From: Longimicrobiales bacterium
Lineage (GTDB): Bacteria; Gemmatimonadota; Gemmatimonadetes; Longimicrobiales; Gaopeijiaceae
Assembly (NCBI GenBank): GCA_965116905.1
Contig: OZ220732.1
Span: 3,456,001 to 3,520,000 of the forward strand
Direction of reading: 5' to 3'
Length of the DNA stretch: 64,000 nt
In this document: positions 25,142 to 61,596 of the stretch, piece by piece
Layout: the number at the start of each line of letters is the position of its first letter
Numbering within the stretch: position 1 is the stretch's first letter
The notes under the pieces: generated by a model
Told to the model about the DNA's origin: nothing
The model's input: the letters and a program-made list of their open reading frames with translations, nothing else
Database searches by the model: none
Program-made: the position numbers and the translations under genes

Positions 25142-25182
25142 CGCAACGAGTTACGGGAGCTCGATGGTGCAGTTCCCGCTGT

Positions 25183-26358
25183 TCATTCCCGCTGTTCGAG
25201 CCCGGAGGGGGCCCTCCGGCGGTCTTCGAGAGCCTCTCTGAGCCGATCCACGTCCGCGTGCTGGTAGCACTGAAGGATCGTGTGGGGCGTCTTCCAGCCG
25301 CCGAGCTCGCAGAGCACCTTCAGCGGCTGGTCCATGAGGTCTGACGCGAACTTGCGCCTCAGCGAGTGCCAACCGCGCCCGCGCTTGGGTGCCAGTCCCG
25401 CAAGCGTCTCGGCTTTCTGCCACCAGACCCGCACCCGCGACCGGTCGAGGCATCGCGACGGGTCCTTCGGCGCCGGCAACACGGGAGCGTTCCCAGCCCT
25501 GCGGCTCCGTGTCCGGGCCTCCGCCAGGACGGAGAGCACCTCGACCGTGATCGGCGTCCGGTGCTCATACCCTGTCTTCTCGTTCTCGGCGCGCCAGCGG
25601 ATGATCCTGTCCTCCATGTCGATGTCCGACCAGAGAAGCTGGCGGATGGCGCCGATACGGTGTCCCGTTTCGTGGGCGATGACCAGCGCCACGCGGAACC
25701 GCCAATCAACCCGTGGTGACACCCTGAGCAGTGCCCCGTACTCCTCGTCCGTGAGGACTACACGCCTCGGGTTCTTTTCCTGCGGCACCCTGAGCCCCCT
25801 CAGCGGGTTGAACTCGAGAAGGAGTCTTCCCTCCTCGTCCCTCGACTTCGCGGCCCAGTTGAGGGTCGCAAGCAGGAACTTCAGGTCGTATCCGACGGTG
25901 CGGTCGGACACCGGCCTTCGACTCCTCCCGACCCTGCCCGCGCGCCGCTCCCGGATGAACCGGTCCCAGTCGCGCTGGGAAAGAGTGGCCAGCCTCCGAT
26001 GCCTTCCGAAGAACCGAAGGAACATGTCCATCGTGCGGCGGTCGTACTTCTGCGCCCGCCCACTCTTGTTGGGGGTTACTTCTTCTCGATAGATGTCAAA
26101 AAGCCCCTCCAGCGTGAGCGGCTCGGGCTCGCGTTCCTGCCGGGGCCTCGGGCTAACGAACCCGGCGGCAAGTGCATCCGCCTGCTTCTTCGCCCGCTGC
26201 CAGTCGCGGTGCCTCAGCGACCGGCTGAGCCTTCGACCCCTCTCTCGCCACTCGACCTGGAACAGGCCGGTCTTGGGATCGGGGAACACCCTCACCCGGT
26301 TCCGGCCCCATTCTCCGGCGCTGTACGCGCGCCGGCCACGTTTCGTGCGTGCCATCAT
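25183..26358 (-). CDS. Tyrosine recombinase/integrase of the ICE
   Basis: Start MMARTKRG (ATGA overlap). Catalytic motifs ETGHR, WHSLRR, GGW, CY are intact. Confidence 0.9.
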   Translation of the reverse strand: MMARTKRGRRAYSAGEWGRNRVRVFPDPKTGLFQVEWRERGRRLSRSLRHRDWQRAKKQADALAAGFVSPRPRQEREPEPLTLEGLFDIYREEVTPNKSGRAQKYDRRTMDMFLRFFGRHRRLATLSQRDWDRFIRERRAGRVGRSRRPVSDRTVGYDLKFLLATLNWAAKSRDEEGRLLLEFNPLRGLRVPQEKNPRRVVLTDEEYGALLRVSPRVDWRFRVALVIAHETGHRIGAIRQLLWSDIDMEDRIIRWRAENEKTGYEHRTPITVEVLSVLAEARTRSRRAGNAPVLPAPKDPSRCLDRSRVRVWWQKAETLAGLAPKRGRGWHSLRRKFASDLMDQPLKVLCELGGWKTPHTILQCYQHADVDRLREALEDRRRAPSGLEQRE

Positions 26359-26756
26359 TCGATTCCTCTCTCGATGATGGACTGCACGATCTGCACGTTC
26401 GAAACATCGCGGCGGAGGGGCTCGTCCGCCAGTCGCGGCTCGGCCGGGACATGGGCCTTCCGGGGCAGATCCTTCAGCGCGATCCTGGGCGCGCCGGGCC
26501 GTCCGGCGTTGGGGATCTTGCCGTCGCGCACGAGGCGTCCGAGGTGGTCGGCGGAGTATCCGCTCTCGCGGGAAGCCTCGACGAGCGAGAACGTGGTCTC
26601 GTCGCGCTCGACGAGGGTGGCTTCGAGGTCGTCGGCGCAGCGCTCGATCGCGACGGCCGGAGTCTCGCCGCCGTAGCGGCGGAGCGACTTGGCCCGCCTC
26701 CGCCAGTCGGCGGGCAGGGCCTCGACCGTCGGCAGGTCCTTCGCGCTGCGCTTCAC
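26355..26756 (-). CDS. Excisionase-like HTH protein
   Basis: 'FSLVEASRESGYSADHLGRLVRDGKIP' winged-HTH pattern; translationally coupled to the integrase. Confidence 0.65.
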   Translation of the reverse strand: MKRSAKDLPTVEALPADWRRRAKSLRRYGGETPAVAIERCADDLEATLVERDETTFSLVEASRESGYSADHLGRLVRDGKIPNAGRPGAPRIALKDLPRKAHVPAEPRLADEPLRRDVSNVQIVQSIIERGIE

Positions 26757-27067
26757 TCCCAGTCTCCCTCGGCGTCCCTGCGGAGGGCATCGGCGAGGTC
26801 ATGATCCCCTTCCCCGCGGCGGGCGGACCGTTCGGCGAGATTGACGCGGCTGCCGAGGTCGGCGAGCCCCGTGGCCCGCGCGACGCCGTAGATGGCGGCG
26901 ACGACGGTGACGACGGCGAACGCCGCGTGCAGCGCGACCGGGACGCCGTGCCGGGCGAGGATGAGCGGCCAATGGGGCGCGAGGTATTCGAGGCGGGATC
27001 CGGCGAGCAAGAACGTGGCGCCTGCGAGTGCGGCGGTGAGTCCCGCGCTGATCTTCCAAGGTTGCAT
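26753..27067 (-). CDS. Small membrane protein
   Basis: Two hydrophobic segments; stop overlaps the next start. Confidence 0.6.
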   Translation of the reverse strand: MQPWKISAGLTAALAGATFLLAGSRLEYLAPHWPLILARHGVPVALHAAFAVVTVVAAIYGVARATGLADLGSRVNLAERSARRGEGDHDLADALRRDAEGDWE

Positions 27068-27086
27068 AGGCGAGTCCTCCCGTGCG

Positions 27087-59003: not shown

Positions 59004-59293
59004 TAGAACAGCCAGGCCAGGAAGTTGACCGCGCCCACGGCCATCCCGATCCCGAAGATGATCCCGGCCAGCGTGCGCTTGCTCCCGCCCTCGCCGAACG
59101 CGAACATCAGCCCGCCGACGACGATCGCGATCAGCGACAGGCCCCGCGCGATCGGCCCGGTGAACTGCGTCTGAAGCTCGTTCACCGCCTCGACCCACGG
59201 GCTCGTGCCCTGCGCCAGCAGCGCGCCGGGCACCAGCGCCAGCAGCGCGGCGGCCCAGGCGGCCGCATGCAGCGTTTTCGACAAAGCTCTCAT
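59003..59293 (-). CDS. virB2: VirB2/TrbC pilin
   Basis: 'SPW..AV..LQ..FTGPIA.GLSLIAIVVGGLMFAFGE'. Confidence 0.88.
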   Translation of the reverse strand: MRALSKTLHAAAWAAALLALVPGALLAQGTSPWVEAVNELQTQFTGPIARGLSLIAIVVGGLMFAFGEGGSKRTLAGIIFGIGMAVGAVNFLAWLF

Positions 59294-59352
59294 GCTCTCT
59301 CCTCCTTGGAGTTCAGTTGCGTCCTGCGGCCAGGGCGCCCCCCGCCCCGGCC

Positions 59353-59844
59353 CTACTCCAGCCACTTCCGGACCCACTCGTCCACCTCGGCCTCGACCCA
59401 GCGGGCCACCCGCCCGCCCAGCGCGACCGGGGCCGGAAAGCGTCCCTCGGCCGACCAGCGGTAGATCGTGCTCCGTCCCAGGCTCGTTCGGGCCTGGACC
59501 TCCGAGATCCGCAGGAAACGGGTCGCCGGAGCCGGCTTCGTTCTCTCATCGGCGCGGCTGTCGGTCATCGCTCCGCTCCGCTTCACGCTCCTCGCGCGCC
59601 GCGCGGGCCCCGGCCCGCCCCGCCGGCGCGGCGGAGCCCTGGCCCCGCCCGGGTCCAGCTCCCAGCTGTCGGCGAATGCCACAACCCGATCCGCCGTCCT
59701 GAGCGTCGGCGAGCGTCCCCGCTCGATCTGGCGCAGCAGGCCCGGGTCGCCCACCGCCAGCATGCCGAGCGTCGTCGGCGCCATCCCCGTGCTGTCGAGA
59801 AACCCGCTTATCCGTGTGTTGAATTGCTCCTCCAGCGTAGCCAT
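59353..59844 (-). CDS. HTH + AlpA two-domain regulator
   Basis: N-terminal 'GMAPTTLG..AVGDP......RGRSP.L.TADRV' Cro-like domain; C-terminal AlpA motif. Confidence 0.75.
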   Translation of the reverse strand: MATLEEQFNTRISGFLDSTGMAPTTLGMLAVGDPGLLRQIERGRSPTLRTADRVVAFADSWELDPGGARAPPRRRGGPGPARRARSVKRSGAMTDSRADERTKPAPATRFLRISEVQARTSLGRSTIYRWSAEGRFPAPVALGGRVARWVEAEVDEWVRKWLE

Positions 59845-61596
59845 TCGACTGCCGTTTCAGCTGCGTCATGCCCGTAACGGTGTAGCGGTCACTTCAAGGA
59901 AGTCAACTCTTAGGAAATCTCCTAAGTGTCTCTGGTGTCTATAGTTATCCCACGTCGTCCCGGAACTTTCGGAGGCCGCCGCCAGTGCGGCGGCAGAGCA
60001 CCTCCGCGAGGCAGCGGATGCGAGACCGGGTGGGTGGGGTGCGAGACGAGCCGGGTTGGCCGGAGGAGGACGGCGGCGGACGGGCCGGTCGATTCCGGGC
60101 GTGTAGAGGGAAGCCGCGGGCGGCCTGGCCGCGCACGTCGGAGCTTCCATCGCGGCCCGAGGCCGTCAGTTCGGCGTGATCACGACCCTGGGACACTCGA
60201 CCTTGTCCCTCAGGGCGCAGTCCTCGCAGTTAGGGGCCCCGCCGGCGTGCGAGCCGCGGTCCGGCACCCGGAACTGTAGAAGTGGACCCGTCCCGAGTTC
60301 GCCCGCGACGACGATCTGTTGCGGTCTGGGGATCCTCGACCTGCAGGAGTTCGAGACCAGGTGCCACGGGTCACCGTCTCGGTTGAGTCGGACTGGGTGT
60401 TGAACTTCATCTCGATGCTGGTGAGCGCGTCGCCAGCAGTGGAGACGCCCGGTTGGAGCCCTTGAGCCAGATCATGATCTTGCACTAAGGAGGCCCCGGA
60501 TGGTGACTGCTCGATGTTGCTCGACCAGCACTCGCTGCGCGGCGGCGGAAGGGTCGGCCCCGCACGACCGCCCTGCCCACCGCCTGACGCGCCGTCGCTC
60601 GGCCGAAGCGGGAGAGAAACGATCCGGTGGGAGTCACGGCCCGAAACAGCCACGCAACCCCCTCTGCATGTCCCGGGAAGCGCTCGACCGTGCTTCGCGC
60701 GCCGCGCGCTACCGAACCGGCTGGACATCCCCGGCCGACCGGCCATGCACGCCCACACCTGCGAATTCCTTGCCGAAGTGTGGACCGCCTTCGCTACTCG
60801 TCATGATGGTCCATCTCCTGCCGCGCGGCGGATCGTCTCAAGTCGCCATGATGTGGGCCGTCACTGATCAACCCACATGGTACCGAATCGATCCGAAGGG
60901 GACGCCTCCCAAAGAGGGGGGATCGTCCGAACATGGTTTGCGGGCTTCCTGCCCGGCGCCACCCCATGCGTGGATCTTCGGCGGGCTGAACCTCCCCTCG
61001 ATGTTCCTCCATCCTGATGATTGAGGCACCGTGTCAAGCCGCCCAAGCGGATCATTGCGCTCCTGTACCAGCCACAGCTGAATGTCCCGCCGTTAGGCAA
61101 CCACGACCGGAAGCACACAGGTGGTGACCGGCTGAACCCTGTCCGGACCCCAATCAACCCTGTCGGCCCATGCCACGATTTCGGGAAAGTCCGCGTTCAG
61201 GTATCGCGCATTGCACTGTTGCAGCATGGGGAAGACGTTCCCCCAGAATCGCTCAAATCTGGACGGGGGGCTGTCTGCATCCTACCGGAAGCCTAGGCTG
61301 CGCCCCGGCACCGCTCGGGACCCTCCAGTCACCCGAATCCCGCTAAAAGGTGTCGGCCGGCGACGCGCTGCGCCTGGCCGCGAAGCCGCCAGCGCGCACT
61401 GTGTGAGGGTGAACTGAGTTCGCTTGGTCGTCGAGCGATGCTTCCGTCGCGTCGGTGGACTGCGCGGGGCTCGTTCGGGCATCCGCGAGGGGACGGCCAC
61501 CAGCACGCCGGGGGTTGAAGACCCGGCGCCACGCCGTTGCAACTCCTTGTAAGGTTACCAGCCCGAACCGCTATCGCGCACCTATCATTGGGGGGG

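Follow-up and report, generated by a model that had tools for sequence, protein, structure and literature searches.

A three-level nest of mobile elements in a marine Gemmatimonadota genome, with each guest inserted in a transfer gene of its host

The window analyzed here is a 64,000-nucleotide stretch (G000:C1:3456001-3520000; G numbers designate genomes, C numbers contigs, and L numbers loci) of a single 4.2-Mb contig from a marine Gemmatimonadota bacterium, with a GC content of 67.7%. Positions above 64,000 are window equivalents on the same contig, downstream of the window end. The window holds a nest of three mobile elements. The outermost (level 1) is an ICE (integrative and conjugative element) with a type IV secretion system (T4SS). 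An 18-kb integrative and mobilizable element (IME; level 2) lies inside a trbJ/virB5-like gene of the ICE, and a 6.4-kb relaxase-less element (level 3) lies inside the mobA relaxase gene of level 2. The nest is real, both interrupted reading frames are restored when the inserts are removed on paper, and insertions at the same codons recur in other genomes. The integrases and the other transfer genes are intact, and the genome has one T4SS. We infer that excision restores both interrupted genes. It is reasonably probable that each guest must excise, precisely restoring the gene that it interrupts, before it can use the machinery that it is predicted to borrow.

Two insertions in transfer genes

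Level 2 divides the trbJ/virB5-like gene into two parts, with a direct repeat at each junction:

35194..35484, minus strand: 3' part of the trbJ/virB5-like gene
35471..35484, plus strand: level-2 left repeat, GACAGGTTGCCGTT
35471..53552: level 2, IME, 18,068 bp plus one repeat copy
53539..53552, plus strand: level-2 right repeat, GACAGGTTGCCGTT
53539..54167, minus strand: 5' part of the trbJ/virB5-like gene, approximately codons 1 to 210

The repeat is 14 bp and the insert is 18,068 bp. Removal of the insert on paper gives an open frame of 301 aa that runs from 54167 to 35194; intact homologues of this protein are 294 to 308 aa long among the 120 listed. Level 3 divides mobA in the same manner:

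38816..39969, minus strand: 3' part of the mobA relaxase gene
39961..46356: level 3, integrative element that lacks a relaxase gene, 6,387 bp and one copy of the repeat
39961-39969 and 46348-46356: level-3 repeat, TGTTGAGGC, 9 bp
46348..46729, minus strand: 5' part of the mobA relaxase gene, codons 1 to 127, with the H-x-H motif (PF03432)

Removal of level 3 on paper gives an open frame of 508 aa, from 46729 to 38816, that is colinear and gap-free across the join when compared with three intact paralogues in the same genome (64 to 70% identity). The 9-bp repeat is weak by itself, with approximately 0.1 such repeats expected between two 100-bp windows, and the boundaries of level 3 were accepted because of the restored mobA frame and the recurrence of the insertion in other genomes. 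Thus, the two nested insertions described in a first-pass annotation of this DNA, each with direct repeats and a gene restored in frame, stand as described. The same is true of its observation that all three integrases keep their catalytic motifs (R, H-x-x-R, H/W, and Y in the translations).

The split mobA gene is predicted from PF03432 to encode a MOBP-type relaxase; its two parts score 66.6 and 41.5 bits against the NCBIfam MbeA cut-off of 500. The gene interrupted by level 2 is best described as TrbJ/VirB5-like, a designation that comes from weak profile scores and from its position before virB6. TIGR02780 matches 13 of 53 homologues (best E value, 2e-8), and the first member matches PRK13874 at an E value of 8.5e-4, far below the cut-off; for PF07996 the E value was 0.039. 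The product has a signal peptide and is helical, and its gene lies directly upstream of virB6. Foldseek found no match to a solved VirB5 fold at an E value of 0.001 or better, giving generic helical matches only for a model with a predicted template modeling score (pTM) of 0.59, and no useful sequence match to the protein was found in the PDB. In the model of an intact homologue (mean predicted local distance difference test score, 69; pTM, 0.59), the break falls between two long helices, and the helix at residues 213 to 281 is lost. Among the 29 virB5-like loci read, 26 were intact past the break codon, 2 (this locus and L088) ran into the element, and 1 stopped at the end of its contig. Of the two interrupted alleles, one encodes 284 aa, made up of the first 208 plus 76 read across the junction, and the other 137 aa. 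In another VirB5-like protein, P0242 (62% identity), the break is at this very point and is made by the same end of the element.

The remaining features of level 2 are as follows:

35658..36875, plus strand: int2, P4/CP4-57-type tyrosine integrase (Arm-DNA-bind_3, Phage_int_M, and Phage_integrase)
46719..47054, minus strand: mobC (NikA-like, MobC)
47119..47224, minus strand: putative oriT of level 2, upstream of mobC, recognized by position and by conservation before other mobC genes
47767..52812, plus strand: cargo, 1681-aa protein with immunoglobulin-like (Ig-like), leucine-rich repeat (LRR), and M66-peptidase regions
53049..53276, minus strand: alpA2, AlpA-type excisionase (PF05930, E value 2e-22)

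Level 2 thus combines its own integrase and direct repeats with mobC and a split mobA and lacks VirB4 or other pore genes, as in an IME. mobA and mobC are intact in its relatives in G009, G039, and G047. The integrase domains (Arm-DNA-bind_3 and Phage_int_M) together with AlpA give it the architecture of P4/CP4-57 islands. In all five complete cases alpA is codirectional with the broken virB5 gene and lies approximately 260 bp beyond the break; no terminator-like site was found between the virB5 5' part and alpA2 in this window. The putative oriT may resemble the nic region of ColE1.

Level 3 has no relaxase gene, no pore gene, and no xis-like gene of its own, and it shares arm-type repeats with int1, the level-1 integrase. 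It carries the following:

40735..41349, plus strand: cargo, T5orf172/MUG113 domain
41645..41723, plus strand: oriT-like site a (nhmmer, 47.3 bits, E value 5e-12)
41868..43286, minus strand: cargo, PD-(D/E)XK nuclease, PADLOC candidate PDC-S26
43424..43508, minus strand: oriT-like site b (nhmmer, 41.2 bits, E value 4e-10)
44172..44819, plus strand: 215-aa gene with an internal duplication, also present in two level-3 relatives
45090..46253, plus strand: int3, tyrosine integrase of level 3, 387 aa

A remnant of the 3' end of a P4-type integrase gene (43836-43994, minus strand) also lies inside level 3, near site b.

Recurrence of the insertions at the same codons

The first-pass annotation proposed a search of related genomes for the same integrases at the same codons. 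int2 was matched in 12 of 151 related genomes, this genome included. Seven other copies were at least 92% identical, five of them at the same virB5 codon and two at sites that share the core. A scan of a genome collection, from which the best 79 loci were taken and two duplicates removed, added three relatives with at least 90% identity, all in virB5 (L144 and L145 were counted once with the G026 and G052 copies). In both sources combined, eight of the ten other copies with at least 90% identity occupy the same virB5 codon. The closest int2 homologues in the scan were in records of Longimicrobiales (Gemmatimonadota).

The virB5 alleles that host level-2-type elements are dispersed over the tree (6 of 29 rows, at least four changes), and the approximately unbiased (AU) test rejected a single clade of occupied alleles (p = 4e-10). 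The int2 copies are 91 to 97% identical, whereas the virB5 alleles that hold them diverge far more and are not related to one another in the tree. The AU tests did not include the cut locus L096, L102 to L105 (incomplete or with less than 55% identity), the mobA allele of G019, or rows that were duplicates.

Among the best 79 loci, 52 of the 61 int2 relatives with identity of 70% or less had a tRNA or tmRNA gene upstream, and none of the 18 with at least 78% identity did; likewise, none of the 15 close loci in related genomes lay beside one. Therefore, the target was switched. A sister clade (83 to 84% identity; L016, which is G087:C7, and L147) occupies one codon (approximately 291) of virD4 in the same ICE family. 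Six other relatives with 82 to 84% identity (L013, L014, L015, L149, L152, and L179) share an upstream non-tRNA motif, CTTCCC..GGGA...GGGAGC, which is perhaps a dispersed repeat. A pattern scan for the far end of level 2 gave 15 matches in 301 genomes, of which 4 without the core were dropped; of the ten others besides this one, two were in genomes without an int2 match. At L257 (G047:C24:100,081), a level-2-type far end is preceded by 27 bases that match the other end of the element, as in a partial attP.

int3 belongs to a large family, with up to 36 matches per genome in the genus. In its own clade (support, 100/97), five of the seven other members lie at mobA codon 127 (G019, G022, G025, G043, and G052); of the remaining two, the G037 member lies further down mobA and one is in an ABC-2 gene. 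The mobA site pattern occurs in 123 copies in 31 of 53 genus genomes, with 6 occupied; one unread match at a contig edge (G004:C20, starting C) is left out of the count of occupied copies. Occupied mobA alleles are 75 to 96% identical to the allele in the window (5 of 34 rows), and a single clade was again rejected (p = 7e-61). The AU tests thus reject, for virB5 and mobA alike, a single ancestral insertion followed by vertical inheritance. In the four level-3-type elements read at both ends, the 7-base overlap of the local allele is present at both junctions. For both int2 and int3, the recurrence search therefore found what had been proposed.

In the part of the int1/int3 family with identified targets, other clades have junctions in mobC, in their own and P4-type integrase genes, and in IS110 transposase, istB, ssb, and rtcB genes, and the family also occupies tRNA genes, IS21 genes, and some metabolic genes. 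The loci with junctions in the mobC, integrase, IS110, istB, ssb, and rtcB genes are L022, L024, L026, L031, L034, L038, L041, L043, L057 to L060, L063, L065, L066, L069, L073, and L076. At L003 (approximately 84,190-84,620), an end of this family lies inside an oriT-like site before mobC, like the streptococcal IME_oriT, and the letters of this junction are also present in a contig of sequencing run X2. The other half of the oriT split at approximately 84,200 was searched for and not found.

Three-level nests recur, and the third guest varies among them. Besides the level-2 copy described here, four complete ones are lodged in virB5: the G009 copy has an intact mob operon, the two G026 copies are broken in mobC and at the start of mobA, respectively, and the G037 copy holds a whole 41-kb ICE inside mobA. 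The level-3 clade is likewise found in mobA of IMEs that are unrelated to level 2. Because other level-2 copies hold different third guests, the nest is best seen as two independent targeting systems that meet in the same place, and the suggestion of a single fixed cascade of parasite and hyperparasite does not hold. At the G037 locus (G037:C2:1,247,000-1,334,000; L116 to L120), the order is an ICE, an IME lodged in its virB5, and a complete 41-kb ICE with an intact virB5 and a 10-bp repeat. At the G026 locus (G026:C2:2,637,000-2,675,000; L113 to L115), the halves of the level-2 insertion are oppositely oriented in the ICE, an apparent inversion, and a small element, which has an oriT-like site and a distant integrase of the P4 type, splits the start of mobA.

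Excision as a probable gate on transfer

Excision by tyrosine integrases usually restores the target. Level 1 has a VirB4-type T4SS and a coupling protein (virB2, virB3, virB4, virB6, virB8, virB9, virB10, virB11, and virD4, all full length). virB4 is present in a single copy in the genome, which indicates one T4SS, and in this cell the level-2 gate is therefore likely to be tight. For level 3 the gate probably leaks, as the genome has three intact paralogues of mobA (521 to 523 aa) at other places. The earlier statement that the T4SS is complete only after level 2 excises is favored by the one T4SS, which leaves no obvious bypass in this cell; no excised form was seen in contigs, with low power. 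The parallel statement that the relaxase is available only after level 3 excises is too strong, given the three intact paralogues, one of which belongs to an IME whose oriT-like site resembles a site in level 3.

The evidence for that resemblance came from a profile built from 11 regions upstream of mobC, with 11 others that lacked the anchor omitted and the level-3 sites outside the training set. An nhmmer search of the 4.2-Mb genome with this profile gave 11 matches, two of them (sites a and b) inside level 3. Site a is closest (64/84) to the mobC-linked site of another IME in the same genome, the 523-aa relaxase of which is intact. The mobC-linked site closest to site b is that of level 2 itself, the putative oriT (62/84); where level 2 reads AGCCAGC, site b has AGCCGGC. 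Dependence of level 3 on the relaxase that it interrupts is plausible here and would be neither exclusive nor general.

The junctions were checked in Logan contigs of runs X1, which may be the source sample, and X2, which comes from a different study; runs X3 to X20 had shares of 0.12 or less and provide no evidence on habitat. Contigs of X1 bridge the level-2 left junction. Those of X2 span the right junction of level 2, where they differ at 19 of 695 bases, as well as the two junctions of level 3.

Several observations weigh against gating by excision. No empty site (35470/53539 or 39960/46348) and no circle junction was present among the joints listed (15 of 20 and 15 of 150), in contigs and with low power, and an X1 contig with a depth of 42 runs unbroken through the level-2 left junction. 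However, the absence of excised joints is not evidence of absence because contigs drop rare variants; the only raw-read run, a Hi-C run of which approximately 1% was sampled, gave 0 reads. The VirB5 identity depends on weak family scores and position, and the essentiality of the virB5-like gene comes from general knowledge of T4SSs only. Of ten other matches to the level-2 far end, four are in virB5 and six are elsewhere, so that secondary sites are used often; virB5 is the primary site. Site b differs from nearly all other oriT matches at a base that is A in those matches, and the canonical site a resembles the site of an IME with an intact relaxase. Two of the three complete level-3 relatives have no oriT-like match, and the third has oriT-like sites together with its own mob genes. 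The 4-base deficit and overlap mismatch at the far junction of level 1 may hinder excision of the ICE itself. In Streptococcus suis, no excision of two ICE-hosted IMEs was detected in the laboratory (PMC7168690).

If excision does act as the gate, induction of the ICE operon would lead to read-through of the 5' part of virB5 into alpA2 and then to excision of level 2. This would rejoin virB5 and reconnect virB6, virD4, xis1, and int1 to the head of the operon. Level 3 would then excise, perhaps with Xis1 acting in trans, and mobA would be restored. The circles would pass through the ICE pore and reenter the same codons of a cotransferred or resident host. Translational coupling of the broken virB5 frame, which runs 76 codons into the element here, to alpA2 was considered and rejected: the frame ends 36 nt before alpA in just two of five on-target copies, and 19 to 50% of shuffles were equally open.

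A broader form of this model is possible and much more tentative. In it, the cascade is ordered by transcription, and release of Xis1 excises the ICE, level 3, and other family members in trans. The level-3 oriT would mimic the oriT of the interrupted relaxase. The integrase family would have radiated into clades specific for genes of mobile elements (mobA, mobC, oriT, own integrase, P4 integrase, and insertion sequence transposases), forming a food web of attachment (att) sites.

It is unlikely, as an alternative, that conserved mobile-element genes are simply a safe haven, cost-free to the cell, in which excision is rare and uncoupled from induction of the host element and nests mostly mark disabled elements that collect guests. 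In three of the four further complete copies of level 2 lodged in virB5, the mob operon is broken by other guests at other sites. The int1/int3 family also occupies IS110, IS21, integrase, ssb, rtcB, and metabolic genes, where gating would bring no transfer benefit, and the cargo arm of level 1 contains remnants. The lack of excised forms in contigs would also be expected. However, the backbone, integrase, and mob frames are all intact here, both att ends follow the local allele, and the near identity of int2 across divergent virB5 alleles requires active movement.

It is also rather improbable that excision, although it restores the genes, is not required because the guests travel while integrated, level 2 with level 3 inside it by means of a paralogous MobA, and an ICE with level 2 inside it through the pore of another ICE. 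The three intact mobA paralogues would allow this, and a single genome of the genus can have as many as 16 mobA sites and as many as 5 matches to virB5. Run X2 has seven contigs identical to levels 2 and 3, whereas part of virB6 is covered only by a contig that diverges, which hints weakly at comovement; at a depth of 2 to 3, however, an identical flank may simply be missing. The single T4SS of this genome speaks against this route, as do the inverted repeats of oriT, which differ between IMEs and suggest relaxase specificity. Both of these alternatives can coexist with excision-gated hitchhiking. That the inserts are one-off secondary-site insertions of tRNA-targeting elements, or an assembly artifact, can hardly be entertained: although int3 is 68% identical to the tRNA-Val integrase int1, distant int2 relatives lie at tRNA and tmRNA genes, and the 9-bp repeat is short, identical codons are hit in unrelated alleles, which already refutes it, and the junctions are bridged by contigs from two studies.

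Gating by excision has precedents as an idea. Coluzzi et al. (2017, PMC5357655) and Guedon et al. (2017, PMC5704250) proposed it for IMEs that have serine integrases and lie in virD4/traG and for those that have tyrosine integrases and lie in oriT; excision upon induction would restore the gene and permit mobilization. Both texts frame it as a proposal, by analogy with prophages (PMC5357655, PMC5704250). Streptococcal IMEs occupy the traG/virD4, maff2, snf2, and PPI genes of Tn5252-family ICEs (PMC5357655, PMC5704250, PMC7168690). Thus, the first-pass annotation was correct that IMEs that target ICE transfer genes are known in streptococci, and gating had already been published as a hypothesis for IME_traG (PMC5357655, PMC5704250). 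Like IME_traG, level 2 disrupts a conserved conjugation gene of an ICE in a site-specific manner. In contrast to IME_traG, which has serine integrases and Tn5252-family hosts in Firmicutes, it has a tyrosine integrase, of the P4 type, within the trbJ/virB5-like gene of a VirB-type T4SS in a Gram-negative phylum, with AlpA just downstream of the 5' part of the broken gene. The streptococcal IME_oriT has a tyrosine integrase and targets the nic site of the Tn916/ICESt3 oriT (PMC5704250). Its guests, like those described here, block a transfer function of the host until excision; level 3 differs in that it targets a coding position in an IME relaxase gene, rather than an ICE oriT, and has no relaxase of its own. 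Level 2 resembles P4/CP4-57 islands (IntA plus AlpA) in integrase domain architecture and excisionase, and it differs from them in lying in a protein-coding transfer gene rather than at a tRNA or tmRNA 3' end.

The mobilizable genomic islands (MGIs) mobilized by SXT/R391 are relaxase-less islands with an oriT. Relaxase-less integrative elements with an oriT have been named iOriTs (bioRxiv 10.64898/2026.01.13.699239). Like iOriTs and MGIs, level 3 has an integrase, att ends, and oriT-like sequences that are helper-like by sequence similarity only, and no relaxase or pore. Unlike iOriTs, it has oriT-like sites of two types, and it would need both the relaxase of an IME and the pore of an ICE. 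A term search of the iOriT preprint found no case of integration inside the relaxase gene of a helper (bioRxiv 10.64898/2026.01.13.699239). Nesting depth is not new: matryoshkas of ICEs and IMEs in Firmicutes reach up to four levels, including an ICE inside an IME inside a remnant (PMC12084326, PMC9585547), and four-level nests are present in Faecalibacterium (PMC12084326). Unlike in those, each guest level here is codon specific for a transfer gene. In the literature searched, with subscription papers and supplements outside its scope, we found no report of these ICEs and none of an element with specificity for virB5/trbJ or a relaxase gene; a tRNA-type P4 integrase retargeted to virB5 was likewise not found, nor was an oriT element without a relaxase that is specific for a relaxase gene. 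In the Palauibacterales paper, neither integrase nor conjugation is mentioned.

With these findings, the targeting of helper genes extends to tyrosine integrases and to a Gram-negative lineage that is uncultured, and it gains a tier at which the target of an element without a relaxase is a relaxase gene. The locus offers small, defined parts for a test of gating at two levels, int2 with AlpA and the virB5 site, and int3 with the mobA site and the two oriT-like sites; alleles that are naturally occupied or empty are plentiful. The integrase family is a natural series for changes in att specificity. Annotation will take ICEs and IMEs of this kind for decayed elements.

The outer element and its surroundings

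The features of level 1, other than the interrupted gene, are as follows:

25067..25141, minus strand: tRNA-Val(TAC), the 5' half of which is the level-1 attachment site; its 5' piece recurs at approximately 109,460 and 124,180
25142..64000: in-window part of level 1, an ICE of approximately 84 kb that extends beyond the window end
25183..26358, minus strand: int1, tyrosine integrase of level 1, 391 aa, of the int3 family (68% identity)
26355..26756, minus strand: putative xis-like helix-turn-helix gene adjoining int1 (HTH_17, E value 0.17)
27087..27977, minus strand: candidate ICE relaxase, with a winged-helix domain and a C-terminal alpha/beta domain, Replic_Relax-like
27999..29048, minus strand: ardC (ArdcN plus MPTase-PolyVal)
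29248..30258, minus strand: virB11
30255..32285, minus strand: virD4 coupling protein
32584..33504, minus strand: conserved ICE gene of unassigned family, 306 aa
33501..34193, minus strand: virB8
34204..35193, minus strand: virB6/trbL (PF04610, E value 9e-14)
54186..59571, minus strand: head of the ICE transfer operon, with virB10, virB9, virB4, virB3, virB2, and alpA1, all full length

The backbone is full length on one strand, in the order alpA1, virB2, virB3, virB4, virB9, virB10, virB5 (split), virB6, virB8, an open reading frame (ORF), virD4, virB11, ardC, two further ORFs, xis, and int1. It is common to ICEs in G009 and G037; the G009 match continues through tRNA-Val, and the G009 ICE also has a level-2 copy in virB5. 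A close homologue of one ICE gene is labelled Candidatus Palauibacter. The xis-like gene, at the far end of the ICE operon, is the sole full-length copy in the genome. The product of 27087-27977 is a weakly supported candidate for the ICE relaxase: PF13814 (Replic_Relax) was at Atlas rank 10 (score, 0.90; 188 shared features), Pfam gave no match, and fold searches of the model matched winged-helix (wHTH) proteins only. The product of 32584-33504 may be a mobilization or replication protein. Its homologues also adjoin integrases in T4SS-free elements, and a second copy is located at G000:C1:2,194,763-2,195,674.

The conserved backbone ends at approximately 60,000. An end of the outer element at 59,950, as first annotated, was rejected, as there is no att repeat at that position, which marks the end of the backbone only. 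The displaced 5' piece of tRNA-Val is instead found outside the window, at approximately 109,460-109,490 (near 109,470) and again at approximately 124,180-124,220. Therefore, level 1 measures approximately 84 kb, and an older remnant of 15 kb lies in tandem with it. The nearer far junction, approximately 84 kb away, is 4 bases short with one mismatch in the overlap, and the outer copy, at approximately 99 kb, is perfect. The older tandem element at the same tRNA-Val spans approximately 3,565,460-3,580,220 of G000:C1 (window equivalents 109,460-124,220), and just the last 40 codons of its integrase are left.

None of the 57 window ORFs scanned matched a resistance family at its cut-off. Cargo genes with Ig-like, LRR, and M66-peptidase regions are found on and around the elements, at 47767-52812, 3364-7062, and 64,600-108,400 (the last being window equivalents). 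Two large genes that face each other, at 7382-11416 (plus strand) and 12021-17036 (minus strand), have the same make-up of SdrD_B and carboxypeptidase-regulatory repeats.

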